Below are positions 46,963-64,000 of a DNA stretch of 64,000 nt, piece by piece. The notes below the pieces were generated by a model. The model did no database searches, was not told the origin of the DNA, and worked only from the letters and a program-made list of their open reading frames with translations. The first letter of the stretch is position 1, and every line of letters begins with the position of its first letter. Made by a program: the position numbers and the translations under genes. Source of the DNA: Kofleriaceae bacterium (GTDB taxonomy: Bacteria > Myxococcota_A > Polyangia > Haliangiales > Haliangiaceae); NCBI GenBank assembly GCA_965215005.1, contig CBDCCZ010000001.1, positions 96,001-160,000 on the forward strand, read 5' to 3'.

Positions 46963-47441
46963 CGGCGCGCAAACACCTTGCGTCCGCTGGTGTACACGTG
47001 TCTGCCCGCCATCGCCTCATCGTGCCAGCTCATGGCTAGACTGCGGCGATGCTCGTCACCTTTGCTGGCGACAGCGCGGCCCGCTGCTCAGAGCCTCACA
47101 CGACGACTTACGACGAGCCGGCGCTCGCCTAGCCCTCGAGCTACAGCGCCAACCACTCCACTGCCACCGCTACCCTGCCGTCATAAGCGAGTCCAGCGTC
47201 CCGACGGGGCGACGCGGGCGGCCGTGCTTCAAGCGGGAACGCCCTCCGCGTTGACCTCAACCCCCGTCCTCTCCTCCCGCCGCTTCCCGCTGTTTGCACC
47301 TGGCACCGACGGCGTAGAGCTGCGCCACTTCCGACGCGCCCCAGACAGCGAAACACGAAGAGCGTCACCCGCGTAGCTCGGGCGCATGTCGCGCGCCGCG
47401 CGGCCGAGATGCGCGCCCGAAGATTTTCCGCCACACACCGA

Positions 47442-47470
47442 TTGACAGCCTCCCGCCACTACGCTAGAAC
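47442..47470 (+). promoter_or_regulatory. sigma70-type promoter of the tRNA operon
   Basis: TTGACA-N17-TAGAAC, 25 nt upstream of tRNA-Val. Confidence 0.75.
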
Positions 47471-47494
47471 GTCCTCCGCCTCACACAGAGGTCC

Positions 47495-47569
47495 GGGCGG
47501 ATAGCTCAGTGGGAGAGCGCCGCCCTTACAAGGCGGTGGCCGTAGGTTCGACCCCTACTCCGCCCACCA
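47495..47569 (+). tRNA. tRNA-Val(TAC)
   Basis: GGGCGGA/TCCGCCC acceptor stem, CCGCC-CTTACAA-GGCGG anticodon arm, GGTTCGA T-loop, encoded CCA. Confidence 0.96.
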
Positions 47570-47600
47570 ATCCGACCCGCACATCAGCAAAAGTTCCATT

Positions 47601-48950
<1,350 letters not shown>

Positions 48951-49157
48951 TTGCCGCCCTTTATCCGTTCGATGACCGATTTAAGCTGAGCGGCCCCGTA
49001 TCCGCCTCAAGCTCGATAGCTGAGCTCGCTCAGACTTTCTGCTGCCGCGGTGCCTGGGAGGAATGGTGCACCGAGCTTCGTGCGGCGGCAACCATTCCTC
49101 GCAGACGCGCTAGGGGAGCTGTTTGTGTCGCGATCGTCCGATGCCTTTTCTGCGCCA

Positions 49158-49496
49158 TCAACCCTTCGCCGATAGCAGATCCAGCGCTCGCCGCGTCACG
49201 TCGGAGCGCGATCCTTGCTGCGGCGAAGCGTCCTCCTGCGACAATGATTGCAACGCGTCGTGTCGCACGCGCACGAGCCCTTGGAAACGGTGAGCCCTAA
49301 GTCTGCCCGTCTTAATCCAGCGACCTATGGTCTTGCTACTCACTCGGAGATAATCCGCTGCCTCTGCGATTGTGAACATTCGGTCTGCATCACATGAGGT
49401 GGCAGCGTTGTCCTGAAGCAGATGCACGTCTTGACGAAGGACTTCGCGCAGTTCTTCGCGGACGAGCGCTCGGAGAGCTTGTTCAAGTATGGACAT
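49158..49496 (-). CDS. excisionase-like HTH_17 DNA-binding protein
   Basis: MFTIAEAADYLRVSSKTIGRWIKTGRLRA....VRV; directly upstream of the integrase. Confidence 0.85.
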   Translation of the reverse strand: MSILEQALRALVREELREVLRQDVHLLQDNAATSCDADRMFTIAEAADYLRVSSKTIGRWIKTGRLRAHRFQGLVRVRHDALQSLSQEDASPQQGSRSDVTRRALDLLSAKG

Positions 49497-49610
49497 GCGA
49501 TGATTTCCTTGACGGAATATAGCGTTCCGCTGAATTGATCGCGGTAATCGGGGAGAGTGGCAGGCGCCGCAGAAGCTTCGCGGCTGCGACGCCTGCCGTT
49601 TCCTGCCGAT

Positions 49611-50081
49611 CTAGTTCTGCTGTCCGCGGTGCGGGTTGATCAGTGGGATGTAGATGGCCCACGCTCGGTCCAGGAGCGGGCGGTCTTCTTCGAAGTAGGA
49701 GTTGAGGTAGCGCTTGACGCTGCCGACGCGTCGGATGCTCTTCAGCGGGAGGTGGCCGCGGTAGTACGTGTAGATCTCCCGTACGACCTGGCCGAATGCG
49801 CTGCGGTGCTTGCGCAGCTGTCCGCGCGAGACCCCTTGCTCGCGCAGGTATTGGGTGAGGTCCAACATCCCTGGGTCTTCCGTCACTGCGACACCGGCTA
49901 TAGCGGCTACCAGGAAGTGGCGTGCCGTTCGCAGCCAGCGCGGGTCGAGTTGCACGCCGCGATCGAAGGCTTTGCTGACGTCTCGCGCGTGTCGTTGCAT
50001 GACCTCGAGCGCCTGCTGCATCGAGTAGTGGCGGTTGTATTCGCGTTGTATATCGTTGCTGGTGTAGCTGAGCATGGTCAT
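49611..50081 (-). CDS. hypothetical protein with phage antirepressor C-terminal-like domain
   Basis: SAFGQVVREIY...G..P...RRV....RYLNSYFEEDRPLLDRAW; GAGGAGG RBS. Confidence 0.55.
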   Translation of the reverse strand: MTMLSYTSNDIQREYNRHYSMQQALEVMQRHARDVSKAFDRGVQLDPRWLRTARHFLVAAIAGVAVTEDPGMLDLTQYLREQGVSRGQLRKHRSAFGQVVREIYTYYRGHLPLKSIRRVGSVKRYLNSYFEEDRPLLDRAWAIYIPLINPHRGQQN

Positions 50082-50086
50082 CCTCC

Positions 50087-50813
50087 TCAGAACGGGATCT
50101 GGTCTTGGTGTTGAGTCGCGTGGTCTTGGAGTTCCCAGGCGTGCAGAACTTGCTCTGCCGCGGTGAGCTTGGCGGCGGGCAGATCGGTGAGCTTTTGCAG
50201 GCTGAACATGTCGAGGAACATGGCGCTGCGGAGGTTGGGGAGGGCTTTGAGGCGGTTGTAAAGGCTCTCTGCGGTGGGTCTGTCGATGACGGCGGCGGCG
50301 GCGCGGGTGTGATCGCTGATCGCGGTGTCGTTGTGTGGGGCGTCGTCGTCGGTGCTGAGGATGCGCGGGAGGTCGAGAAGCTCGAGCTGGGTGATGGCCT
50401 GGCGCTCGTCGTCGGTGAGCGGGCGGTCTGGGAACATCCAGTATTTGGTGGCGGTGTCGCCGCGGGCGCCCTGGCGCTGGATTTCGATGGCCATGGCATC
50501 AAGGGAGACTCTGTCGCGGAGCTTGAGCAGGCCCTCGAAGGTTTGGCCGCTCATCTCGAAGATGCCGAGACGTTGGGTCTGCAGGTCGTAGAGCTGCACG
50601 GCGGACGCGGGTGGCGGGACGCTTGCCAACAGCGAGGCCCTCGGGGCTATCGGCCGGGACGTATTTGCTGCCGGTCCAAATCACTTCGTAGCCGTGCGGC
50701 TCGCCAACCACGGCGGCGACTAGTTTGTCTCCGTCATTGGTCAAGCGAATGAACATGCCGGGGCCGCTGTTCTTGGCGGCGAGTTCTTGGGCTTTCTTCC
50801 ATGCGTCTGTCAT
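50087..50813 (-). CDS. phage-type ssDNA-binding-like protein with a +1 frameshift near 50603
   Basis: MTDAWKKAQEL...FIRLTNDGDK...RPATRV joins AVQLYDL...EIQRQGARGDTATKY if one C is removed; ends DQIPF; AAAGGA RBS. Confidence 0.6.
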
Positions 50814-50832
50814 CTGAGTTCCTTTCATCTGG

Positions 50833-51645
50833 TCAACTGGCAAATCGGTAGGTGTCGTTTTGGTTGGCCGCGTGTTGTCGACCTCTAACGAGGTAGAGGC
50901 AGCTGGCGACGGCGATGGGGACACGCGACGTCGAAAAAATTTCGACAGCGCGTTGAAAAAGGCGCGCACGGCGACGCTTGATGCGTTGGTAGCTGCGTTC
51001 GTCGTTGCCGCAGTCACTGGCCAAGGCGCGAAGCGATCGCGCCTCGGGCTGGCCCTCGATCAACAGCTCGATGTCTTCGGCGGTGAAATGGGAGGCGAGG
51101 AGTCCTCGAACCGCGGTCGCCATGGCTTGTGGCTTTGGTGATGGCGGCGGGGCGTGGAGGCGAACCATGGAGAGTTCGACGAGGTGCTCGTGCGGCGGCG
51201 CGATCGCGTGCAGCTCGCGATGGAAGCGTCGGTCGGCGGCGCGGCAGAGGTTGCGGACGACGCAGCGGCCTTCGCCAGCGACCGGAAAGCGCGCCATGGC
51301 TTCGAGAAAGGCAAAGAGAACAATCGAATCGACCGGCTCGTTGCGCCCTCCTAAGCAGGCGGTGGAGCGCAGCCGCTTCAGATGCGGCATGAAGACGCAG
51401 ATGCCGATGGCCTGATAGACCGGCTCGCGCTCGGCTTGGCTGGCAGCGAGCAGTGCGCGCAAGAGCGGCGTGGCGTCTGTGAACGCGCGGGCGAGAAGCG
51501 AGGTCTCGAGCGTCTTGAGAAGTGAGGCGGGAGAGCGGTGCGCGGCAAGGAGCGGATGGCGGTGCTTGGTCGCCGCGAACACGGCGCGGTAGGAATCGTG
51601 TTCGAGCTCTGCGCGCAGGGCGCAATCCACCTGTTCGAGCCACAT
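50833..51645 (-). CDS. divergent sigma70/ECF-like factor of the element
   Basis: region-2-like DSIVLFAFLEAMARF...RNLCR; region-4-like FTAEDIELLI..Q..RSLRALA....SYQRIKRRRARL; GGAGAGG RBS. Confidence 0.55.
   Translation of the reverse strand: MWLEQVDCALRAELEHDSYRAVFAATKHRHPLLAAHRSPASLLKTLETSLLARAFTDATPLLRALLAASQAEREPVYQAIGICVFMPHLKRLRSTACLGGRNEPVDSIVLFAFLEAMARFPVAGEGRCVVRNLCRAADRRFHRELHAIAPPHEHLVELSMVRLHAPPPSPKPQAMATAVRGLLASHFTAEDIELLIEGQPEARSLRALASDCGNDERSYQRIKRRRARLFQRAVEIFSTSRVPIAVASCLYLVRGRQHAANQNDTYRFAS
50895..50923 (-). promoter_or_regulatory. element motif TGTCCCC-N15-TGCCTCT, copy 1
   Basis: TGTCCCCatcgccgtcgccagcTGCCTCT on the minus strand, about 80 nt upstream of the SSB-like ATG. 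Confidence 0.7.
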
Positions 51646-52004
51646 GTCGACCTCCTCTCCGCGGGGCGGAAGCCAATGGCATCGACGCCTCGCGGTGGTT
51701 GTGCAGGCGGCCTGTCCGCCTGCGTGGAAGTCACCGTAGATCTGCCTGAGGACGCGCTGAGGAATCGTGAGGATTCACGAGGATTCAGCGTGATTACAGA
51801 TGCTTACGGCTGAATATTTTTGTCGCCGAGCCTGGCGCTGCCTTGGCGGAGGGGCCCTCGCATCGGGCTGGGCGGGGACCAGAGACGTCCACGGGCCGAT
51901 CTGCACCCGCGGCTTTCGGGGCTCAAGTTGGCAGGCCGCTTCACCGATCCAGGAGGAGCCAGGTTCGAGTACCGACTCTCTACGTCAACAAGGTGGTTTT
52001 TAGG

Positions 52005-52721
52005 TTGTCCACGTCCTCGAAGTTATTGATCGCGGCGCTACCGCTACTGCTTGTTCCAGCGTGTGTCATTGAGCAACCGGAGGAACCTGCAGACCCGACG
52101 TCGCCAACTGCGCCGACCTCGCCCACTGCGCCGACGTCGCCGAATGCGCCTACTGCGCCGACGTCGCCCACTGCGCCGACGCCACCGGCGGAGCCTCAGC
52201 TGGTGACCGTGCTGATTACCGAGGTTATGGTTGGTCCTGGCACTGTTGACGGCATGGCGTGGGATGGCTCGAGGGCGATCGATCCGGCGCTCATTCGGCA
52301 GATTGCTTCAGCGCTGCTTTCCATCGACCCGTGGAGTGCCGTGATCGCGATCCTCGGCGGCGGCCTGCTCGATTACTACGAGAGCCCAGATCCGTATGGA
52401 TGGGCAGAAATCTCGGTCGGAGGCGTCTTCTATCCGGAAGCGGCGTGGTGGTTAGCGACGGAGGTAGACAATGCCGAGGACACGTACATCATGGCGACGC
52501 AAGGCGGGTGGGAAGGTGTCCCTCTTGATGAGGATGTGCGGATTGCCGTCACTCTCTACGATGAAGACCTGGTGAACGATGACTACATGGGCCGCGTCGA
52601 GCTCAACTCGCAAGACCTTCGGGCTGCGTTGAACGCGCGGCGAATTTACGCGGTTCCCGTCCACGCTCAGAGTAGCAACCAGCTTCTCTTCGTTCGGATC
52701 AGCGTCACTGAGACGCCTTAG
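52005..52721 (+). CDS. lipoprotein with Pro/Thr repeats and C2-like domain
   Basis: LVPAC lipobox; PTSPTA repeats; VTLYDEDLVNDDYMGRVEL; TTG start inferred. Confidence 0.65.
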   Translation: MSTSSKLLIAALPLLLVPACVIEQPEEPADPTSPTAPTSPTAPTSPNAPTAPTSPTAPTPPAEPQLVTVLITEVMVGPGTVDGMAWDGSRAIDPALIRQIASALLSIDPWSAVIAILGGGLLDYYESPDPYGWAEISVGGVFYPEAAWWLATEVDNAEDTYIMATQGGWEGVPLDEDVRIAVTLYDEDLVNDDYMGRVELNSQDLRAALNARRIYAVPVHAQSSNQLLFVRISVTETP

Positions 52722-52765
52722 AGCCGTGATCTTTCACAGCAGACTGCCGCGATTGGCTCGTCCTC

Positions 52766-53879
52766 CTACCGCTTCAGAAACGGCTCGTCGGGGCTCAGTA
52801 GGACCGCCCAGCGCAGGTCTGCGGGCGGTCGAAAGGTCACCGTCTTCTGGCCTTCGGCGGTGTGGAAAGAGCGCCATTGGGTGCGGCCGAGGCGGACGTC
52901 GACGGCGGGACGGCCGCGTTTGACGGGGCCGATTGGATGGCGCATGTCGTCGGGGATCGAGCGGAGTCGCCGCAGGGTTGGCTGCTCGCGGCGGCGGTAG
53001 ATGAGCTCGGCGAGGACGCGCGCTTCGATGGGTAGGATGGTGCTGGTGACCCATTCGCCATCGGCGCGCTTGCCGACGGAGACGCGGCCGGCGCGCACAG
53101 AAGCAAGGTCGATGAGGAGGTCGAGGTCGGTGGTCTCGATGATTGCGCGATATTGGTCGTGCGTAAGGGAGCGCTCGCCGTCGTGACTGATCGCCAGGCA
53201 ATGCGCCTCGGGCTTCTGCGCAACGTGCGCAGCCAGCGGCGTTGGAAGTCGCTCCGCCACCTCGCGCGCGAGCAGCACATCGCCGACGGCGACGAGCTCG
53301 CGTTCGCACACGCGCAGCTCCACGCCCTGATGGCGAGTTTTGCTGAAGTAACTCGGGCGTGAGCGAGCTGGCCGTGGGAATTGCCACGGTCATGGGTCCG
53401 CCTAACTGCAAGTGCAGCGCGCTCAGAGATGGATGCGGATCGGGACCGAGGAGCAACACCGCGGGCTGCGGAAGGCCGTCTCGACCGGCGCGCATGCCGA
53501 GCGAGCAGAGGTCGATTCGGCCGAGCACGGGGCCGCCGATTGCTCCATCGTATTGCCATGCATGCGCGATGGCGTTGGCGACGGCCGCCAAATCGAGCCG
53601 CCAGACCAGGAGCGCATCGCGCGTGAGTTGCAACGTCTCGCAGAGGCCGGCGTCGCAAACGGCCACCAGGTCATCATGGCCGTGCTGAACCACGCGCCGC
53701 GGACATCGTGAGTTCGCGCGGAGTGTGCAGGGATAGCGTTGGGCGAGCGCCTCTTCGGGAATCAGCCACGGCTCGATGACGGCGAGCTCATCGCCCAGGC
53801 GCTCACGCCAAGTTGCTTTCGTGCCGGGCGAGCGCAGATTCGAGCTCAGGTAGCGCCACAGCCTAGACAGCGATTGCAT
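52766..53879 (-). CDS. Cys-containing hypothetical protein of the element with a +1 frameshift near 53340
   Basis: YPC......CPRRVVQH..DDLVAVCD...C; LQQ joins TRHQGVELRVC if one A is removed. Confidence 0.6.
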
Positions 53880-55026
53880 GCGATGTGCCCGGAGCCGCGC
53901 AGAAACCGCGTGCGATCAGCCACGTCTCGACCAGCTCCGCATCTTCATTGCGCGTGTACGAGGCGCCGCTGGCGCCCTCGAGCTTGACGGTGCGAGGTGC
54001 TCGAGCGCCGGCGAACTTGAGACGGAACGTCGCGGAATGGATGTCTGCGTCCGGCGGGATGGCATGACCCGTTCTCGTCATGCAGCGAAACAGATCCGGG
54101 GCGCGACGGTCGACGTGCTCGATCTGCTCCCCGTGGTCGAACACGAGCCGCACGTGGATGAGCCGTGCCCATTCCAGACCAGGAATGTCGCTGCAAACGA
54201 GCGACTCGGCTCCCGCGCGCAGTGGCTTCATCGTGTACTTGGCGTGCGGCAACGCCTCGGCATCGTCGAAGAGGTGCTCGCCAAAGACCGTTCGATAGAC
54301 GCCGAGCAAACGCGGCGTGTTGGTGTTGATGGCCAGCTCGCGCGTCTCCGGATCGACCTCGATCAAATCGTAGACCTCGGGGCGGAAGCGCACGCGGCGT
54401 GAGGCGCCGTCCTCGTCGATGGCGCCCTCGACCTTGAGCGGATCGCCGCGCCGCACGATGACGACCAGGCGCTGCTCTCGCATGCGCGAGAAGACTTCCA
54501 CCGAGGCGCTTCGTTTGCGCTGGGCAAGCGTCTCGCCGAGCTGCTCCTTTAGGATGGCCCATTGCCGGCTTGAGAGCGTTGCGCGCGGCGCTGCGATGCC
54601 TTTGCGCGCGCAGAGGTAAACGAACTTTCGCCGTCGACGCACCGCCTGCTCGGCGTGAACGCGCTCGAGAAGCTGCGGAGCCCAGACGCGCGTGGCTGCC
54701 GCGACATCGGCCGGTGTCACCGCATCGGTCTCGAGCAGCCAACGCTGGAGGGGCGCGTGCTCGCCATCGATCTGCTGGAGCAGCTGGTCCATGGCGGCCG
54801 GAGTCGCCATCTCGGCGATGAAGCACAGATCTTCCGCAAGCCGTTCGGGAAGGTCGACATCCGCTGGCAGCCGGGCCAGCGCGTCGGCATCGACGAGCTC
54901 GTTGGCATCGCTGCCCAGATGCGTCGCGAAGAAGTCACGGTACGGCGCGAAGAGCGCGTGAAGGAGCTGGGGCGCTTGAACCTGGGCCACCACGCGTGCG
55001 AGGTGCGGGAAGAGAAACGAAGCCAT
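53863..55026 (-). CDS. conserved hypothetical protein of integrative elements
   Basis: 387-aa ORF with FIAEMATP..MDQLL, VRFRPEVYD, KYTMKPLR, VETWLIARGF; overlaps the downstream gene. Confidence 0.75.
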   Translation of the reverse strand: MASFLFPHLARVVAQVQAPQLLHALFAPYRDFFATHLGSDANELVDADALARLPADVDLPERLAEDLCFIAEMATPAAMDQLLQQIDGEHAPLQRWLLETDAVTPADVAAATRVWAPQLLERVHAEQAVRRRRKFVYLCARKGIAAPRATLSSRQWAILKEQLGETLAQRKRSASVEVFSRMREQRLVVIVRRGDPLKVEGAIDEDGASRRVRFRPEVYDLIEVDPETRELAINTNTPRLLGVYRTVFGEHLFDDAEALPHAKYTMKPLRAGAESLVCSDIPGLEWARLIHVRLVFDHGEQIEHVDRRAPDLFRCMTRTGHAIPPDADIHSATFRLKFAGARAPRTVKLEGASGASYTRNEDAELVETWLIARGFCAAPGTSHAIAV

Positions 55027-55189
55027 CGATCAATCCTGGGTAGGGGTGGTCGTACAGAGGTTCTACCCGGGGGGAGCGACACGTATTGCCGCTGCCTTCC
55101 TCTGAACCGCACTTTGCCAACTCCAGCCACATCGACGGAGGGATCGGCTCGAGCAGCGACAGAAAAAACGCAAAAAACGACCGCGTCGA

Positions 55190-55218
55190 TGTCCCCATGC
55201 GCTCTTGGCACTGCCTCT
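55190..55218 (+). promoter_or_regulatory. element motif TGTCCCC-N15-TGCCTCT, copy 2
   Basis: TGTCCCCatgcgctcttggcacTGCCTCT preceded by two A6 tracts; 10 nt before the helicase ATG. Confidence 0.75.
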
Positions 55219-55227
55219 CCCCCTGCT

Positions 55228-56764
55228 ATGGGGCAGAGCAGAAAAGAACTCCAACCACTTCATCCAGCACACCCGGTAGCGCTGCGCGACTATCAGCTCG
55301 AGGCACTGACGCGACTGGCCGCGCGCCGCGCCGCCGGCGTCGAGCGCATCTTGCTCGTCGCACCGACGGGCGCGGGCAAGACCACCATCGCCGCGCAGCT
55401 CGTCGCCGATGCCGTTCGAGCCGGAAAGCGCGTGCTGTTCATCGCGCATCGACGCGAGATCATCACGCAAGCCTACGAGCGCTTTGCCGACTTCGGGTTC
55501 GAGGAGCGGCAGCTCGGCGTCATCATGGGCACCGATCCGCGGACCAACGTCGGCGGCATCGTGCAAGTCGCCAGCATCGATAGCCTTCGGCGCAGGCGCA
55601 AACCTCTTGCGGATCTAGTCATCTGGGACGAGTGCCACCGCGCGATGGCGGCGACGTACCGCGAGACGCAGAAGCACTACGACCGCGCTACCCATCTAGG
55701 GCTCACCGCGACGCCTTACCGCGCCGATGGCCAGGGTTTGCGCGAAGCGTTTGACGAGCTTCTCATCGTCTCGACGCCGCGGCAGCTAATTGACGCTGGC
55801 TATCTCGTCGAGCCGCTGGTCTACACGTTGCCGCCGGAGAGGCTGCCTGACCTATCACGTGTCCGCGTGCGCGGCGGCGACTATGAAGCGGGCGCGCTGG
55901 GACGGGCAGTGAATCGAGCAGCCATCGTCGGCCAGCTCGTTACGCAGTGGCAACGACACGCAAGCGAGCTTCGCACCGTCGTCTTCGCAGTCAACATTCC
56001 CCATTCGGAGCACATCACCCTGCGCTTCCAGCAGGCTGGCATCGCCGCCGAGCATCTCGATGGCCGCACTCCCAAACCCGAGCGTGATGCGATTCTCGCG
56101 CGTCTAGATACCGGCGAGACGCAGGTGGTGTCCAACGTGGGCGTGTTGCAGGAGGGCTGGGATCAGCCGTCGGTGAAATGCGCCATTCTCGCGCGTCCAA
56201 CGCAGTCGACCGGCCTCTACATTCAGATGGCCGGCCGCATCTTGCGCCCTTGGCAGAACTCGCGGGCGGTGATCTTAGATCACGCTGGTTCCGTCTATGC
56301 CCACGGCCTGCCCCATAGCGACCGACACTTCACGCTAGAAGACGGCGAGCTCCGCGAGCGCTCTGAGGCCGTGCCGCGTCGCTGTCCCGCGTGCAGCGTC
56401 GTGATTGCGCCCGTTGCCCAGACGTGCCCTTCCTGCGGCATTGAGCTGCCGCGTCCCAGAGCTGCCAAGCGAGACCGAAGCCGAGCTCACGTTGGTAACG
56501 CCCGAGGCCTACGCCAGCGATTCTGCCGAGAAGAAGGCCCACTGGAAAGCGCTGTGCGAAACCGCCGAAGAACGCGGCTTCAAGCCGGGCTGGTGCAGCC
56601 ATCGCTTCAAAGACCGCTTTGGGCACTGGCCGCCACGCCACTTCCCACCACCGTCGACAGAGGCCGCGTGCCGCCGCGCTCGAACCGATCGCTTCCTGCT
56701 CGAATCCGCCCAGCGCGGAGCTCGCATCACCTGGGACGCCATTGATCAACTGAGGAAGGGGTAA
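55228..56764 (+). CDS. SF2 DEAD/DEAH helicase with zinc finger, +1 frameshift near 56456
   Basis: LRDYQ, PTGAGKT, DECH, LTATPYR, EGWD.P, QMAGR, CPAC...CPSC; tail ERGFKPGWCSHRF in the next frame. Confidence 0.88.
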
Positions 56765-56767
56765 CCG

Positions 56768-59702
56768 ATGCAGATCGCGGTTGCTCCCAACAAGTTCTCG
56801 CGCGGGTTCCGCTGTGGCGATTTGCAAAGCGTTCCGCATGGCTATGCAGTATTGCCGCTGCTCGAGGCCCTTGGCCACACGTACGAATCCGATGCGCACG
56901 CCGTGCAGTACGTCGTTTCGGGGTGGGAGCTGCAGCCGCGCATCAACAAGAGTGGCTTGGTCCATTGGACAGGCCCCATGCCGCTCGTGCACGTGCTCTT
57001 CGTCGATGTCGACAATGCGGGGCACGCAGCGTGGGACGAGGCGAGCTATGCAGCCTCGCTCGTAGAGGACGGCTTGCCAATCGTATCCACCGCCGGCGTC
57101 TACTACACCGCCCACGGCAAACGCTACGTACAACCACTGCCGGAGCCTGTGCCCGTGACCGAGGTCGAGCGCTTCATCGCTGGTTACTTCCTCGAGCTCG
57201 GCAGCGCCGGCATTCGCTACGAAGAGAACTGCAGCGACTGGACTCGACACTTTCGCCTGCCAAACGTGCTGCGCGATGGACATCCGTATCAATCGCCACG
57301 GATCGACCTGCAGCGCATGCAGCCGCGGCGCATCGAGCCGGTGGCGCGTGCCATCGCCGTGCCTGCGAAGGTGCGCAGCTGCCGCAAACGGGCTTCAGAG
57401 CCCGCGCTGGCGCCGGTTGATTGGCAGGCGGATGCACCCGCCCACTGGGCCGAGCGCATTCCGGTGCTGGCGGAAGCAATTGGTCAAGTCGACAGTGAAT
57501 GGCACACGCTGTTTTCTCGCGCTTTCTGGTGCGCTCTTGGCGCGTGGCGTCCTGCCGGAACAGCTGCCGGCGCTGGTGCGGGCAATCTCAAAGGCAACAG
57601 CCAACGACACGCGAACCGAGGACCGCGTGACGTGCGCCGAGTCGACCGTGGAAGCAACGCTGATGAACCGGCCGCATACGGGCTATCGAAATCTGCGCGA
57701 GCGATGGCCCGCCGTGGCCGCCGCGCTGGACGCCGTCACGGCCAAAGGCCACGCGGCGGTCGTTCATGCGCTGGCGCAGGCCAAGCCCGAGAACGATGCG
57801 CTGATGGCCAAAGAAGAGGCCGCGACTGAAGTGGAGCGCGCCATCGTCAAAGCGCCCGCCGGCGTCTCGTTCATCGCCACTGACTGTGGCTTGGGCAAGA
57901 CCCACGCCGGCATTCGGGTGGCGATCCAACGGGCCAGCAAAGTGCATGCCTCCGAAGCGATCAGCGACCGGGCGCCAGCGGACTCCAAGACGGCCATCAG
58001 CGTCGATAAGCATTCGCTGGCCATGCAAGTGGCTGAAGATATCAAGGCGCAAGGCGTGGCGGTTCTTCGCCTCTTTGGGCCGCTGTCGCTACGCGATGAA
58101 GACGACAAGCCCGTGTGCATGTACTTTAAAGAGGCCGAGCCGCTCGTTGCGGCCGGGCAGCCGCTCGACTGGCTCTTCTGCAAAGGGCAAGGTCGTCAGG
58201 AATGCCCGCTATTTGAGACGTGTCCCGCGCGCGAAGGCCAAGAGGGCGATCCGGACGCCCGCATCGTCGTTGGTCCGCACGCGCTTCTCAATCGGCTCAC
58301 GTCCCGCGTGGGGCAGAATCTCGTGCTCGTCGATGAGCCGCCAGTCGTTATCGACGTTCAATCCTTTGCTGCGGACGACCTCGAGGAGACCGAGAACCAC
58401 TTGAGCGAGTTCGTGCGCGAGACCGTGGACCTCGTGAAAGACGGCTTGGCCGAGGTCCGCGCCTGGTTCGATCGCGCCAAGCCCGGCGAGATGCTGCGCT
58501 TGCACGATCTGGTTCGCTCCGGCGAAGGACAGTCTCCTCTCTTCGTCGATCCGGACACCCCGCCCACGCCGCAGCTCACCGTCCTTGCCGGCACCAGAGC
58601 ACGCAAACAAGCATCGTTTGCCGCCGCGCTCGCGACCCCTTCGCGGATTCTCGGCATGATCTTGCGAGCCCTCACCCTTCGCGGCAACCCCGCCTTCTGC
58701 GTTGAGCGGGTCAAAGGCGAGAAGCGCCTCGTCGTGCGCGATTTGCACCGCGCCTGGGACGTCATCAGCAACCCCGAGCGCACCGGCGCCACCATCCTCC
58801 TCGACGCCAATGCTGCGCTCCATCGGCCGCTGGTGACCAAGCTCCTCGGCTATGAGCCGCCCATCACCGCCATCTCCGCCCCCGACGGCGCGCCCATCGC
58901 GCGCACCCTCCGCTACCGCAAAGGCGCCACGCGCAAAGGCTGGTTCGCCAAAGGACAGCTGCAGCTCAACCCGCACCCCATGAGCTGCGTTGCCGAGATG
59001 ATCGCGTGGCTCAAGAGCGATCCGCCGCCCACCAAGTCCGGCATCATCAGCATGCGGCCCATCGCTGTTGCCTTAGAAGCCGCCAGAGCCCCGCAGAACG
59101 ACAACCTGCCCGCGCAGTGGGTTGCGCTCGGCCAGGCGCCCGAGACGCTCACCGCCGCGCAGAACGCCCTGGGGCCGCTCATGGAGCAGATTCCCGGCGA
59201 CGTCGTCTTCGGCTACTACGGCGGCCTGCGCGGCCTCAACCACATGAAAGACGTCGACAAGCTCGTCACCCTCGGCGATGCCTATCCAAACCTCGAAGAC
59301 GTCAAAGCCGAGCTCCTCGTCCTGCGGATGGATGCCGCCAACCTATGGGAAGCGCGCCTCTCCGGCCTCTGCCGCGCCGAGCTCGAACAAGCCCACGGCC
59401 GCCTGCGAACCATCCATCGCACCAAGCCCGGCTACGCGCTGCATATCGGCCGCGAGCTGCCGAGTGGGCATGCGTGGGGTGATGGCAGCGTGACCGTGGT
59501 CGGTGACCGGGGCGGACGAGGTAGATCATCTGTTCCCACGGCCATGAAGGAGCTCGAGGACGCCGTCGCCCGTGCCGGTGGCCTCAGGCATCTCGCCGAC
59601 GCCCTCGGCATCTCTCACAGCACACTCTCGAAATGCCGAGCTCGAGGCCGGGTGACCGTCCTGGTGTCGAGGCAGCTCAGAGAGTGGTTGAAGGTAGGAT
59701 AA
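56768..59702 (+). CDS. AEP-type primase fused to a helicase-like domain and C-terminal HTH, +1 frameshift near 57514
   Basis: LFVDVDN, YYTAHG, DWTRHFRLP; after removing one T: GLGKT, LVLVDEPP, LLDA, QAHGRLR; HTH LRHLADALGISHSTLSK. Confidence 0.7.
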
Positions 59703-59724
59703 ACATGAAGTGTGAGTCAGCTTC

Positions 59725-59789
59725 GGTGACGAAACTACTTATTAGATATCTAATAAGGGGTTTCGTCACCACTTTGTGGATTTCGTCAC
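59725..59789. repeat. 46-bp near-perfect palindrome plus a third TTTCGTCAC copy, candidate origin
   Basis: GGTGACGAAAC-TA-CTTATTAGATATCTAATAAG-GG-GTTTCGTCACC (59725-59770) and TTTCGTCAC (59781-59789). Confidence 0.85.
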
Positions 59790-59899
59790 AGCCACGGCCC
59801 TTCACCCGAATCCATGGTCGGACCTTTCGACATCAACAGACGGACGCCACGAAGCCTCAACGCGTTCAGAGTTCAGGGAGGCAGGCCGATTAGATTCGT

Positions 59900-60415
59900 G
59901 TGCAGGAGAAAACACGGTCCAGATGGCGCGTCTTGACGATGATGACGATCCTGGTCGCTTATCGCATTACCCCGGCGGCGCACGCAGATGCGGGTCCCGA
60001 CGACCTCGAGTTCGCCGTGAGCACCGCGAAGTGCAAACAGGCGTTCACCGACCACTGGGAGGAGGCGCATATGGTTCGGACTGCTGATGGCGACCCGCCG
60101 TTCTTCTTCTGTAAGAGGTTCGATGGCCGCGTTGAGTGTGCCGGAGGGTTCTTCTCCGAGGCTGAGAATGCCAGGAAAGATGCTCGGAAACACACTCTTC
60201 GAGTCGTGCGACAGAACGAAGACCTAGGATTCTATGTTCTCAGGAATGAAGCACTAACTATGGTGATCACTCTTGCACTGAACCGCGCGAGTTTGATCGT
60301 ACAGAGTATCGACCCATTGGACGACCGCCTGGTTGTGAGCGTCAAGGTTTGTTCGGGATTGGCGCTCACCCGTAAAGAACTGGAGGACGCGAGGAACGAA
60401 GGTTCGGCGAGATGA
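59900..60415 (+). CDS. hypothetical secreted protein (cargo)
   Basis: signal-like N-terminus ending AHA; four Cys. Confidence 0.55.
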   Translation: MQEKTRSRWRVLTMMTILVAYRITPAAHADAGPDDLEFAVSTAKCKQAFTDHWEEAHMVRTADGDPPFFFCKRFDGRVECAGGFFSEAENARKDARKHTLRVVRQNEDLGFYVLRNEALTMVITLALNRASLIVQSIDPLDDRLVVSVKVCSGLALTRKELEDARNEGSAR

Positions 60416-60786
60416 AAAATGCGCGAATCTGATACGAGATCAGACGTTGGGTCATCATGCGTTGGCTGTTACGCAGCAGCCTACCTGACGGCGCACAGCG
60501 TTTTCCGACGTGGGCTGAACGAGGGATTCGAGCCGCGGCGAAGCCGACCGCGCTCATCGTCGGGCGCTTTTCTTGCCCCGTGGCAGGCGGCGTCGTAGAG
60601 CGCTCGTTCTCGCGGCATTCATCATACCCTTCGCGGTGGTCTGCGGAACCGATCCCAACAATCCTAGTGGTTAGCGACAGCTAGGGCGTGGAGATAGTCA
60701 AAGAGTGACTCTGCGCAAGCGTCACCTCATGCGTGCATCGCCGCCGCGCCAAGAGCGCTTAGTCGAAAGTCGTTGGAGGAAAGCCG

Positions 60787-61248
60787 ATGGAAATAGATCT
60801 CTTCGAACGCTGGAAGGAAGTCGAAGGCGTGGCCATGCACTTCAATGAGTTGATCCTTGGCTTCCGGACTCAGGCACTTGCGGCCGTGAGCGTCGCAGGC
60901 GGCATATCTACTGCTGTGCTCACGAAGGGAGAACCGGACAGGCTGCATTTCCGCCTATTGGGATGGGTGCTGGGACTTCTCCTCGCACTGTGGGCCGCAA
61001 TTTTTTTTCTGGACTCGCTCTACTACCAGAAGCTGTTGCGTGGCGCAGTTGACGAGGCTAAGCGACTCGAGGCAGAAAGTGCCGGGGCATTGCAGATGAG
61101 TACCGCTATTGAGATGCAATTCGAGGGCTGCTGGAAGGGCCATCACCTCTTCTACAGCTTGCCAGCTGTTGCTCTTCTTGTTGGACTAACCTTGTGCTTT
61201 TGGCGCGGTGGGAAGTCCAAGAACAGCGGCAGCGGGCCGCCGTCGTAA
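60787..61248 (+). CDS. small three-TM membrane protein (cargo)
   Basis: GGAGG RBS; HFNELILGFR, two TM, FLDSLYYQKLLRGAV, third TM. Confidence 0.7.
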   Translation: MEIDLFERWKEVEGVAMHFNELILGFRTQALAAVSVAGGISTAVLTKGEPDRLHFRLLGWVLGLLLALWAAIFFLDSLYYQKLLRGAVDEAKRLEAESAGALQMSTAIEMQFEGCWKGHHLFYSLPAVALLVGLTLCFWRGGKSKNSGSGPPS

Positions 61249-61261
61249 GGGAGCCCGTGAG

Positions 61262-62197
61262 TTAGCGCCAACGGCCCTCGAGCGAGGCGCCGCAGCCCGC
61301 TGAGATCCGCATCCAGCGCATCTCAGAGCCCGCGCCGCCCATCCAGCGCACGCCATCGTCATCCACGCGGCGCAACGTGCCTGAGGCCTCCAGCGGCGCG
61401 CAGACGCGCTTGATCAGCGTCTGCCCCGTGACATGCAGCCCGAGCATCTGCGCCAGATCGTGCGTCGCGTACGGCTTCTCCGGCTTCATCGACGAAACCA
61501 GCTCCGCCTGCAGCGCTAGCCAGTCGCGGCTTCGGCCGTTCGTCCGACCGGGCGACGGGCGTACCGGCCCCGGCTCGCGAGTCTCACCGCTGGCGTCGAC
61601 CTCGGCGGCATCACCATTGTCGTGATCGCCGTCGTTTTCATCTCGGAGGTACTCCTCGTCGTCATCATGGGCCCAGAGCGCCAGCTGGGGCTTCGCGCGG
61701 TTCGGCGGGAAGAACGCCCAGCCGTCGCGAGTGAACTGCGGCACCACCCAACGCACATTCTGCGTCCCTGTCCCTGGCCGCCACGGGAAGCCGTCGGCGT
61801 CGTACTTCTCCAGCTCGCCCGACTGCACCAGCGGCGCCAGGGCACGATTGATGAAGGCCGTGCGACTGGCGTCTTTCATGCCGAGCATCGCCCGGAGCTC
61901 GGCAGTGCAATACATCAGCCCCGGGTCTGCCTTCGCCAGCAGGCGCTCGCGCACCTGCCGCCAGCTGATGCGCTGCGCGCATGATCCGATGCGCTCCTGG
62001 CGCGGCCGCTTCGCCGGCAGGGCCGTCCTGCTGCTGCCGCCCATGGGAGGTGAAGCAAGGCCCACCGCAAGCGCCTCACGGGCGGCAGCGAGCGCGTGCG
62101 ACGCCTCAGCGACCACCTCGAGCTGGCGATCATAGGCGGCAGCGAGCTCAGAAACACTCCAGTCGCGGTACGCAGAAGCCATAGCGGCCGCGTTCAT
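61262..62197 (-). CDS. protein with two repeated winged-helix domains and an acidic linker
   Basis: internal duplication W....L......Y.T..L..MLG......I.R..APL..SG.L...D.DG..W..G.G....RW; start uncertain. Confidence 0.7.
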   Translation of the reverse strand: MNAAAMASAYRDWSVSELAAAYDRQLEVVAEASHALAAAREALAVGLASPPMGGSSRTALPAKRPRQERIGSCAQRISWRQVRERLLAKADPGLMYCTAELRAMLGMKDASRTAFINRALAPLVQSGELEKYDADGFPWRPGTGTQNVRWVVPQFTRDGWAFFPPNRAKPQLALWAHDDDEEYLRDENDGDHDNGDAAEVDASGETREPGPVRPSPGRTNGRSRDWLALQAELVSSMKPEKPYATHDLAQMLGLHVTGQTLIKRVCAPLEASGTLRRVDDDGVRWMGGAGSEMRWMRISAGCGASLEGRWR

Positions 62198-62788
62198 ATC
62201 GCACCAAGCCCGCCGCGCCAAGCGCTGTCTTCCTCGCCGTCGGGGAGGAGAGCTACCGCCGCGGCCGAGGAGCTCGAAATCTGGACTCGCTCGCAAGCGC
62301 CCGGTCTGGGGACACTTTGCTGCACCAATTAAGGTGACTTATTATCTCTCAACATAACACGCATCGGATCTGCAGATAAATGCGATGCGTATTTATCCAT
62401 TAATCAGTATTAGGATCTCTAAAGAGGCGCATGATTTTTTCCAGTCCACATCCGGCGATTGTCATCTGAGTGCGCGCTGCTGGTGATCCTATCGAGTGAA
62501 GCCGCGTCTCCTATGGGTATCCTGTAGAAGACAGGCAGCGAGGTCAAGTAAGAAATGGAGCCCCGAGCGTTCACCAAGGCTCGCGGGGGTCCTATCAAGC
62601 CTAGCTCCTGGACCGTCGTGGAGGACCGCACCTTCGCTCCGCCATTCCCGCCGAACGCACCACTTTGCGAGGCGCCGGACGGTCGAGTTGAGCGGCTCGT
62701 CCACCGAGCAGCCGTCGCCGACACGGGGGCCTCTTCGAGCTGCAGCCGCCGGTCACTGCAAGAAAAATGAAAAAAGTGAGCGTGCCGA

Positions 62789-62817
62789 TGTCCCCGTTCT
62801 GAGTTGGCACTGCCTCT
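62789..62817 (+). promoter_or_regulatory. element motif TGTCCCC-N15-TGCCTCT, copy 3
   Basis: TGTCCCCgttctgagttggcacTGCCTCT preceded by A5 and A6 tracts; about 48 nt before the nuclease ATG. Confidence 0.75.
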
Positions 62818-62865
62818 GTCCCCGTAGGGGCCGACAAAACGACGGCTCGAAGGAGGCAGAAGGCA

Positions 62866-64000
62866 ATGACGCAGACTCAGTCACTTACGGGCGCTCTCAG
62901 CGCCGAGACGTACAGCTACACGAAGCTCAACACGTATGAGGAATGCCCGCGGCGCTACAAGTTGCGGTATCTGGACGATGCGGAGGCGGAGCCGGGGGAG
63001 GCGCTTCGGTTTGGGAAGGCGCAGCACCAGGTTTGCGAGGGGCTGTTGCGCGAGCATGTGGCCCAGGAGCGGCTTGGGCGGCTTTCGGCGGAGCGAGCGG
63101 TGGAGCTTTGGCGGGAGGCGTGGACGGAGCATGAGCTCAGCGGGGCGGGGTTGTTTACAGAAGGGGTGCGCATGCTGCGGGGGTTCGTCGCCAGCGAGGG
63201 CGATGTGGATTACCGGCGCGTGCTGGGGATCGAAGAGGCGTTCACGGCCTCGATTGGTGGCATTGCAGTGCGGGGCGTCATCGATCGCATCAACCGCATT
63301 GATCACGAGACGGTGGAGGTTGTTGACTACAAGACGAACCGGCTGATCAACAGCCGACAAGAAGTGGACGAGAATCTACAGCTGTCGGTCTACGCAATTG
63401 CCGTTCGGCAGCTGTTTCCGTGGGTTCGCCAGGTTCGGCTCACGCTGCACTTTCTGCGGCATGGGGTCAAGATCAGCACGACGCGGACGGAGGAGGAGCT
63501 GGCCGCTGTCTCCGAGTACGTGCGGGTGCTCGTTGGGCAGATTGAAGCCGATCATGCGTTCGAGGCGCGTCTCCAGTCGAGCTGCCAGTACTGCGAGCAT
63601 CGGAAGAGCTGCGCCGCTTACCAGACGGCGCTGGCGGGCAACGTATCGATCATCGCCTCCGAACCGGAGGACCTGGAGCGGGTGGCGGTTGAGCGAGAGA
63701 CGGTGGCGGGGCTGGCCAAGCTCTATGGAAGTCGACAGCGTGAGCTCGACGGCATCCTGCGCGCCAAGCTCGACTCGGTGGAGTCGCTCGAGCTGGCAGG
63801 GCGCCGCTATCGCGTCGTGAACACAGCCCGCAAGACGTTCCCGCTGGATCGGACGGTGCAATCACTCAGCGATGCCTCCGGTCTGCCCGCGAACGAGGTG
63901 CGCGAGCAAGTGTCCACCGTCGACAAGGCGCAACTCGACAAGCTCGTGGGCACGTTGAAGCCGAGCCTGTCTAAGTCGCGGTTCAAGCTCTTGCGGCTGG
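62866..64000 (+). CDS. PD-(D/E)XK RecB/AddB/Cas4-like nuclease, runs off the window end
   Basis: manual translation: SYTKLNTYEECPRRY...FGKAQH...RGVIDRI...VVDYKT...QLSVY...CQYCEHRKSC; AAGGAGG RBS; absent from the ORF track because there is no stop. Confidence 0.88.
   Translation, partial: MTQTQSLTGALSAETYSYTKLNTYEECPRRYKLRYLDDAEAEPGEALRFGKAQHQVCEGLLREHVAQERLGRLSAERAVELWREAWTEHELSGAGLFTEGVRMLRGFVASEGDVDYRRVLGIEEAFTASIGGIAVRGVIDRINRIDHETVEVVDYKTNRLINSRQEVDENLQLSVYAIAVRQLFPWVRQVRLTLHFLRHGVKISTTRTEEELAAVSEYVRVLVGQIEADHAFEARLQSSCQYCEHRKSCAAYQTALAGNVSIIASEPEDLERVAVERETVAGLAKLYGSRQRELDGILRAKLDSVESLELAGRRYRVVNTARKTFPLDRTVQSLSDASGLPANEVREQVSTVDKAQLDKLVGTLKPSLSKSRFKLLRL

Follow-up and report, generated by a model that had tools for sequence, protein, structure and literature searches.

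Layout of the element and its genes

The window analyzed here, a stretch of 64,000 nucleotides, contains the left end of an element integrated at a tRNA-Asp gene (Table 1). Since a second copy of the att repeat lies at G000:C1:205165, the element measures about 61.5 kb and extends beyond the window. Its minus-strand block runs from an SSB-like gene, with homologs in 21 related loci, to the tyrosine integrase. The gene located between the SSB-like and excisionase-like genes had been labeled an antirepressor in the original prediction. Its product has no match in Pfam, PHROG or NCBIfam. The label retains indirect support, as an 84-aa stretch shares 33% of its residues with the C-terminal part of the Bro-N protein of the element (pairwise E 1e-13). 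The product of the large gene following the helicase is 38-44% identical to a 1025-aa protein of the related locus L067 and matched no Pfam or PHROG family, so that the name primase first given to it is not substantiated. The last block begins with the exonuclease gene and continues beyond the window with RusA, a sigma4-domain protein and the Bro-N protein.

Table 1. Coordinates of the genes and motif copies in the window.
Feature	Position	Strand	Details
Tyrosine integrase, last gene of copy-1 block	47637..48950	-	phrog_1, E 3.9e-34
att repeat, left element end	47649..47726	+	3' part of tRNA-Asp and terminator
Excisionase-like HTH_17 protein	49158..49496	-	PF12728, E 8e-12; phrog_66
Protein with C-terminal domain of the element's Bro-N antirepressor-like protein	49611..50081	-	Pairwise comparison
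SSB-like gene, first after copy 1	50087..50813	-	phrog_14578, E 1e-4; frame break at about 50603
Candidate sigma70/ECF-like factor P0001, 270 aa	50833..51645	-	Predicted structure; phrog_36246
Putative promoter, copy 1	50895..50923	-	-35 TGTCCCC, -10 TGCCTCT; within 3' end of sigma-like gene; predicted +1 at 50886
Two genes upstream of the sigma-like gene	52766..55026	-	Frame break in second gene at about 53340
Putative promoter, copy 2	55190..55218	+	Predicted +1 = helicase ATG at 55228
SF2 (ResIII/DEAD) helicase	55228..56745	+	PF04851, E 8e-30; phrog_16
Large replication-type gene, putative primase	56768..59702	+	Frame break at about 57513
Putative promoter, copy 3	62789..62817	+	Predicted +1 at 62826; GGAGG and ATG 62866 downstream
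PD-(D/E)XK exonuclease	62866..64000 (end at 64071)	+	Domain searches

The sigma-like gene was initially described as divergent. It is in fact co-directional with the SSB-to-integrase block, on the same strand and upstream of it. The two genes upstream of it, without family assignment in Pfam, PHROG or NCBIfam, occupy the same place on the same strand in several relatives. No anti-sigma gene was seen next to the sigma-like gene, its neighbors being this pair and the SSB-like gene. Scans of 37 and 24 element proteins (a subset of the ORFs) detected no terminase, portal, HK97-type head or tail gene, and one ORF of the element is single-jelly-roll-like (Z 6-7.3 to the capsid proteins of SPV1, HHIV-2 and P23-77). 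The myxobacterial LexA box gave one two-mismatch match in the element against 2.6 expected.

A bipartite motif confined to the element

The motif TGTCCCC-N15-TGCCTCT had been reported as three identical copies absent from host DNA, and both statements hold. The window contains three exact copies and, with up to two mismatches allowed, nothing beyond them; three copies were reached in 0 of 100 shuffled sequences. The scan was extended to the whole assembly (6,209,310 b, 62 contigs). With a spacer of 15, it returned 3 perfect sites, no one-mismatch site and 16 two-mismatch sites, and spacers of 12-14 and 16-19 gave no perfect site and 13-25 sites with two mismatches. All three perfect sites of this 6.2 Mb genome fall inside the element, and the 6.15 Mb of host DNA hold no exact copy. 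Host half-site frequencies predict 6e-5 copies in the element, a post hoc figure, and the motif is the top-ranked 6+6 bipartite word of the element, the att repeat set aside. The search for extra copies in the element yielded no convincing one: there were three matches with 2 mismatches, at spacers 14, 16 and 17, besides a single core with 1 mismatch. Neither the capsid-like module nor, with up to two mismatches, the minus strand of the element upstream of 51645 carries a copy. A scan of 47400-64000 for the sigma70 consensus found 1 site against 2.3 expected.

Copies 2 and 3 have the flanks CGATGTCCCC and TTGGCACTGCCTCT in common and A-tracts upstream, as originally noted, and a T-tract accompanies copy 1 on the same strand. 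The suggestion of a general UP element was rejected, as an A5/T5 tract accompanies only 14 of 96 sites in the family of related loci. The mini-hairpins predicted after the three copies can be drawn. They are present at 17 of the 96 family sites, against 20.0±3.5 in half-swapped controls (423 of 500 swaps reach 17) and 13.5±3.4 after base shuffling. We thus discarded them as a part of the promoter and regard them as a composition artefact arising from a discriminator rich in C and a start rich in purines.

The sigma-like protein and its relatives

The predicted structure of P0001 (pLDDT 85) comprises an N-terminal helical extension (about residues 1-52), a sigma2 domain (about 55-148), a linker and a sigma4-like HTH (about 172-239). 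In the VIA structural search, 22 of the top 23 rows were sigma factors or sigma-bearing complexes, with a best Z of 8.8, within a range that the tool rates as common among helical proteins. Residues 55-150 or so aligned with sigma2 of RpoS, SigK, SigI6, SigA, AlgU, SigW and SigE at an rmsd of 2.6-3.6 Å over 77-105 residues (Z 5.6-7.9, single values being middling). The top 18 rows of the Foldseek search of the PDB were all sigmas, none reaching an E of 0.001, and the ranking agreed across three structural searches. The sigma4 region consists of four helices following a low-confidence linker. Whole-sigma alignments extend to residue 239-245, and sigma4-only rows gave Z 4.7-5.6. The linker is short, as fits the absence of sigma3, yet the N-terminal helical extension spans some 50 aa.

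P0001 had no Pfam or NCBIfam match, no Pfam r4 and no PDB sequence match; the word-index homolog search returned only P0001 itself, its patterns found nothing in viral contigs, and its homolog P0014 had no match in phage and plasmid collections. P0001 belongs to the unannotated family phrog_36246, which includes MXAN_1875 of Mx alpha, and it lies on a long branch and is missing residues of the family, among them the DLDQ glutamine. The family profile matched no PDB sequence. Curated profiles detected Sigma70_r2 in 5 of 82 members at E<=0.1 and Sigma70_ECF in 1 of 82. The family profile aligned with the paralog P0123 (HHalign 97%, E 3e-11), which itself scored E 3.6e-8 against TIGR02937 sigma70-ECF (33.2 bits, cut-off 42.9). 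Taken together, the model and the structural searches support the sigma-like fold first proposed for this ORF, which models as sigma2, linker and a sigma4-like part preceded by an additional helical segment.

The pairing of motif and sigma-like gene recurs across homologous elements. Of 76 non-redundant homologs, 39 have the pattern [TC]GTCCC-N16/18-GCTTT/GCGTTT/GCCTCT at the 3' end of the gene, and the antisense control gives 1 of 76; the other 37 lack a site by this hand-built pattern, and the patterns were derived from the same loci in which sites were counted. The family motif recurs before operons 7-8 times in prophage loci of 72-80 kb, compared with 5 times across 6.15 Mb of host DNA. 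A survey of 96 family sites in 43 loci showed that they are asymmetric, with free spacers, and lie ahead of operons on the coding strand. In class A, offset 7 is a pyrimidine in 86% of sites and offsets 8-9 are purines in 81-88%; 5 of the 96 sites have an ATG at offset 7-9 downstream. Such a pyrimidine-to-purine switch 7-9 nt downstream probably marks a start site. The gene-start test was modest (72 of 96 sites, against 48% at random positions). The bipartite promoter reading is borne out as a sequence signature, namely a fixed 15-nt spacer in the three copies of the window and start-site-like composition in the family. The coincidence of ATG 55228 with the predicted +1 suggests that the helicase mRNA from copy 2 may be leaderless.

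The motif class tracks the clade of the adjacent sigma-like gene. B sites are present in 9 of the 9 loci where a class-B paralog is visible and in none of four long A-only loci, which are close kin; 9 loci have a class-A gene without a strict A site. The covariation expected between motif and sigma sequence is only suggestive at the residue level. Arg in alignment column 128 is found in 11 of 17 TTT rows, 11 of 11 class-B rows and 0 of 6 TCT rows; for Gln107, the counts are 15 of 17 TTT rows and 0 of 6 TCT rows, these six stemming from about three lineages. In the related locus G413, the helicase follows SSB behind the sigma-end site, unlike in our element, where it forms a separate operon with its own motif copy. 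The motif system is a family trait rather than unique to this element, which has its own -10 variant. Prophages with two paralogs and two motif classes, early and late, suggest a possible sigma cascade. Family members were found in 16 of 138 (family), 35 of 401 (class) and 19 of 401 (phylum) genomes searched.

Proposed function and comparison with known systems

We consider it highly probable that the motif is the -35/-10 promoter of P0001, an alternative sigma of the element switching on three operons. This reading builds on the observed uniqueness of the motif, the sigma-like fold, the family-wide co-location and the start-site-like composition. Once made, P0001 would bind host core RNA polymerase, its sigma4 reading TGTCCCC and its sigma2 TGCCTCT, and transcription would start 8-9 nt past the -10 box. 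The operons driven would be SSB to xis-int (with read-through from copy 1 as far as int), the helicase and replication gene, and the exonuclease, RusA and regulators, so that excision, replication and recombination would be switched on together and host genes left alone. Copy 1, in the 3' end of the sigma gene itself, would couple the downstream genes; it points away from this gene, and therefore no direct feedback is expected. The master switch of the original prediction would thus hold for the DNA-metabolism blocks and not for the whole element, as both the region upstream of the sigma gene and the capsid-like module are devoid of copies.

It is unlikely that the sites are promoters or operators of another factor, with P0001 degenerate or auxiliary. 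Such a factor might be a host ECF, or an activator of the element acting with the host primary sigma, e.g., the sigma4-only ORF that follows RusA. The high divergence of P0001 and the presence of a sigma4-domain protein in the element speak for it, as do 10 loci of relatives with B sites and no matching B gene in view, although most of these are truncated. A host ECF regulon would hardly leave host DNA empty of copies. Also, the sigma4-only ORF has no homolog in the related loci compared, where the sigma-like gene has 25, and the tracking of gene clade by motif class argues for the adjacent gene.

It is still less likely that the repeats are duplication remnants or signals for replication, recombination or packaging rather than promoters. 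The extra flanks common to copies 2 and 3 are what duplication would leave, but the asymmetry, free spacers and coding-strand position ahead of operons, as well as the start-site-like Y|R switch and the leaderless ATGs seen in the 43 loci, point to promoters. Chance repetition in GC-rich DNA deserves almost no weight: the motif was picked after the sequence was seen, but the window, genome, expectation and word-rank counts and the family-wide recurrence refute it.

Beyond this element, we tentatively propose, with slightly less than even confidence, that an unrecognised family of sigmas controls the lytic programme of temperate phages and islands in Myxococcota, Mx alpha among them. In this scheme, an early paralog (TGTCCCA-N17-GCGTTT) would activate a late one (TGTCCCC-N16/17-GCTTTG), and gene and promoter would diverge into orthogonal pairs (here with the TGCCTCT -10) insulating co-resident elements; the module would here be grafted onto a tailless jelly-roll-type provirus. 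The literature covered, with subscription papers largely outside it, gave no description of the sigma-like family, MXAN_1875, the consensus or the cascade, nor of an earlier two-sigma cascade for temperate phages of Gram-negative hosts. Our reading would offer a function and a promoter consensus for a hypothetical-protein family present in a few to ten percent of genomes searched. The switching-on of Mx alpha, the kin-discrimination prophage of M. xanthus, is an old question that becomes testable in a model organism, and the natural sigma/promoter variants form a ready set for work on -10 specificity and orthogonal expression parts.

An element-encoded sigma with private promoters is a known concept (SPO1, SigN, Tn916 Sig7-8). 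In the sigma cascade of phage SPO1, gp28 acts before gp33/34. SPO1 and T4 likewise use phage-encoded sigmas with private middle and late promoters, and the two-paralog relatives suggest the same order; however, those phages are lytic, whereas we deal with temperate elements of Myxococcota-type hosts and with two paralogs of one family having near-identical -35 boxes. SPO1 gp33/34 and T4 gp55/gp33 are mentioned in a preprint (bioRxiv 10.64898/2026.10.01.756105). The same preprint describes Tn916 Sig7-8 as a split two-subunit sigma from an integrative element, needed for excision and element expression, that relies on one main promoter upstream and on positive feedback. P0001, in contrast, is a single chain with three putative promoters, one in its own 3' end.

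SigN (ZpdN) of the Bacillus subtilis plasmid/prophage pBS32, an element-encoded divergent sigma, has its own consensus and a regulon confined to the element, DNA-metabolism-rich and largely outside the structural region (PMC6751061), much as proposed here. SigN is LexA-repressed and self-activating from an upstream promoter, whereas the P0001 gene has no upstream motif copy and the LexA box is not above chance in the element. Also, the host of P0001 is Gram-negative, and the likeness is not based on a sequence relationship. Group 4 (ECF) sigmas resemble P0001 in the sigma2-linker-sigma4 arrangement predicted for it and in bipartite fixed-spacer promoters, and their classification did not capture phage and divergent ECFs (PMC7826278). 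P0001 differs by its N-terminal extension and its scores below family cut-offs, and from classical ECF modules by the lack of an autoregulatory site upstream or a visible anti-sigma gene.

Mx alpha is given as MXAN_1800-1901 of Myxococcus xanthus in a preprint (bioRxiv 10.1101/2024.12.30.630742). The four supplements of PMC8844925, a possibly incomplete set, hold no MXAN_184x-188x rows. MXAN_1875, annotated as hypothetical, is 30% identical to P0001 (E 5e-16), and locus L062, 94% identical in the MXAN_1875 protein, has the two paralogs together with the two classes of sites; the comparison is based on this protein and locus rather than on Mx alpha DNA. Our element differs from the Mx alpha type in having one paralog and a different -10 box, and from G345 in having a jelly-roll-like module in place of terminase, portal and sheath genes. 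Nevertheless, related prophages, Mx alpha included, appear to use the same sigma/promoter scheme.

Motif copies and the putative promoter signature

The original prediction of three identical copies of TGTCCCC-N15-TGCCTCT holds, with an exact match for each copy, and all three lie inside the integrated element. A full-genome scan also confirmed that the host carries no complete copy, as these three are the only perfect sites in the whole assembly, where zero one-mismatch sites with spacer 15 were found and two-mismatch sites were at background level. With up to 2 mismatches allowed, the window showed no further copy; three copies were reached in 0/100 shuffles, and when repeated 6+6 words were ranked without bias, only the att repeat came before the motif.

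We then compared 96 de-duplicated sites from 43 loci. Downstream of the -10 box comes a stretch rich in C, and after it a pyrimidine-to-purine switch. In class A (about TGTCCCC-N16/17-GCTTTG), Y reaches 86% at offset 7 and R 81-88% at offsets 8-9; in class B (about TGTCCCA-N17-GCGTTT), C reaches 72% at offset 6 and R 73% at offset 7. A coding ATG falls at offset 7-9 in 5 sites, copy 2 included (ATG 55228). A same-strand start codon lay within 100 nt of 72/96 sites, against 33/95 on the other strand and 924/1920 at random, counts which rest on crude gene calls. The mini-hairpins described after the motif and the UP-element-like A-tracts upstream failed controls across the family sites.

The sigma-like protein and its family

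P0001, the 270-aa protein whose gene contains copy 1, has no Pfam or NCBIfam match, and matches phrog_36246, whose function is not annotated. A further 92 distant proteins share about 30% identity with it (82/93 rows were kept in the alignment, short and very long ones being left out). In its AlphaFold2 model (pLDDT 85), three helices at the N terminus are followed by a four-helix domain (55-148); after a disordered linker comes another helical domain (172-239). In the VIA structure search, sigma factors or sigma-bearing complexes made up 22/23 top rows (best Z 8.8), and the sigma2 part superposed at rmsd ~3 A. Sigmas also ranked first with Foldseek in the PDB and viral libraries, where E 0.001 was never reached. 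The family profile matched the paralog P0123 (97%, E 3e-11), which public sources label sigma-70 family and which matches TIGR02937 at E 3.6e-8, with a score below the cut-off; an L018 ORF, called ECF-looking from its appearance, gave a weak colinear alignment (64%). The predicted sigma-like nature of the ORF is thus supported by the model's best structural matches and by the profile bridge to TIGR02937 via P0123, which together identify P0001, from sequence and model, as a divergent sigma70-type protein with putative RNA polymerase binding.

Homologs occur in 16/138 family, 35/401 class and 19/401 phylum genomes, with differing E thresholds and our own genome counted in. Most titled records come from Myxococcota or Deltaproteobacteria, and one member, MXAN_1875, lies within the Mx alpha prophage interval of Myxococcus xanthus. 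Of 166 profile matches, 141 covered nearly the full length, and removal of redundancy at 80% identity left 76. A TGTCCC-type bipartite motif was found near the gene end (-60..+200 around the domain end) in 39/76, against 1/76 on the opposite strand; the pattern being hand-built on the same loci, the test is this antisense control and not the fraction. Many of the 37 motif-negative homologs either fall in a clade where a conserved gene comes directly next or show, by eye, different variants such as TGTCAC...ATGG. Also by eye, in the distant clade of L048, L054 and L057, TGTCAC-N16-G..ATGG, with a very different -10 box, lies at the gene's 3' end.

Every element reuses its own site variant. Class A sites number 7-8 per 72-80 kb in G190, G413 and G521, compared with 5 in the 6.15 Mb of host sequence, and the present element, with 3 sites of its own kind, lacks both class A and class B sites. 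B sites are present in 9/9 loci where a true class B paralog is in view and in none of four long A-only loci, which are close kin. Exceptions are 10 mostly truncated loci with B sites and no B gene, and 9 loci in which an A gene is present and strict A sites are absent. G161 and G040 also deviate: scored B, they are placed in other clades and have no B site. Covariation of sigma residues with site variants was only suggestive. In G345, a myovirus-type prophage (terminase, portal, sheath), B sites precede the run exonuclease-RusA-class A sigma-terminase and A sites precede portal, head, baseplate and fibre genes, a layout which suggests a putative early-to-late sigma cascade. Near the class B gene of L062-L066, the early region is flanked on each side by a tandem pair, a B site and an A-like site about 100 nt from each other, which suggests a promoter hand-over.

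The integrated element

The element is about 61.5 kb long. The following table gives its features.

Features of the element (L002-L004, element stretches beyond the window; G000:C1, the same contig in its own coordinates)
Feature	Position	Strand	Description
Borders	window 47649; G000:C1:205165		~78 bp repeat of tRNA-Asp 3' end
Motif copy 1	window 50923-50895	-	SSB...xis-int block
Motif copy 2	window 55190-55218	+	helicase-replication gene
Motif copy 3	window 62789-62817	+	exonuclease-RusA-regulators
P0001 ORF	window 50833-51645	-	sigma-like
Frame breaks	window 50603, 53340, 57513		read-derived contig ends at 50603/50604, 53340, 57514
Palindrome	window 51755-51790		imperfect; upstream of sigma gene
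Lipoprotein-like ORF	window 51843-52721	+	Pro/Thr/Ala repeat
Gene pair	window 52766-55026	-	unknown genes
Palindrome	window 62375-62397		imperfect; AT-rich gap before copy 3
Sigma4-only ORF	L002:2762-3268	+	168 aa; sigma4-like HTH only; copy-3 operon
Distal module	L002:9708-18909 (G000:C1 ~167.7-176.9 kb)		jelly-roll-like protein, SLT, transglutaminase-like protein, second tyrosine recombinase
Right-end cargo	L003-L004 (G000:C1 ~184-204.6 kb)		defence and toxin genes plus others

Very probably, P0001 loads the host core polymerase on the three predicted promoters, so that SSB-xis-int, the helicase-replication gene and the exonuclease-RusA-regulators would be switched on together. The helicase follows SSB in G413 and here forms a separate operon with its own motif copy, which indicates that the predicted promoter site travels with the genes. 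No motif copy was found upstream of the sigma gene in the element. The sigma4-only ORF has no homolog among the related loci compared, and we speculate that it could be a late regulator.

The gene pair, which may be a regulator or defence cargo, is kept immediately upstream of the sigma gene in six relatives (G413, G325, G276, L061, L111, L122); in G190, an XRE repressor occupies this slot together with a QueC-like gene. Here the lipoprotein-like ORF, without family match, is inserted between the pair and the sigma gene. Both palindromes are operator candidates.

Three element genes show frame breaks, each within a short base run. Because each break coincides with the end of a read-derived contig, they may reflect consensus errors of long reads and not gene decay; the contigs are short, shallow and probably derived from the source sample. 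The single-jelly-roll-like ORF of the distal module (226 aa, 117 homologs, model pLDDT 86) reached Z 6-7.3 against SPV1, HHIV-2 and P23-77 capsid proteins; the module, in which the search of the element found zero motif copies, could represent a tailless provirus or else an element nested within this one. The cargo includes an Rhs protein (REase-7 toxin domain), a HEAT-repeat protein next to it, a CD-NTase-like gene with Cap15, a DACNG/DACNH protein and, by eye only, IS-like and type I restriction-modification-like ORFs.

Comparison with known systems

In our literature searches, neither the P0001 family nor its consensus nor a control of Mx alpha by a sigma factor came up, and no sigma in Mx alpha is mentioned in the passages of PMC6070905 and of preprints retrieved by term. 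The ECF classification states, in the part consulted, that phage and divergent sigmas are not captured (PMC7826278). Element-encoded sigmas with private regulons are already known, according to excerpts of the respective sources, for SigN (PMC6751061) and for Tn916 Sig7-8, SPO1 and T4 (bioRxiv 10.64898/2026.10.01.756105). The motif and sigma observation is real, and the general concept of an element-encoded sigma is already known.
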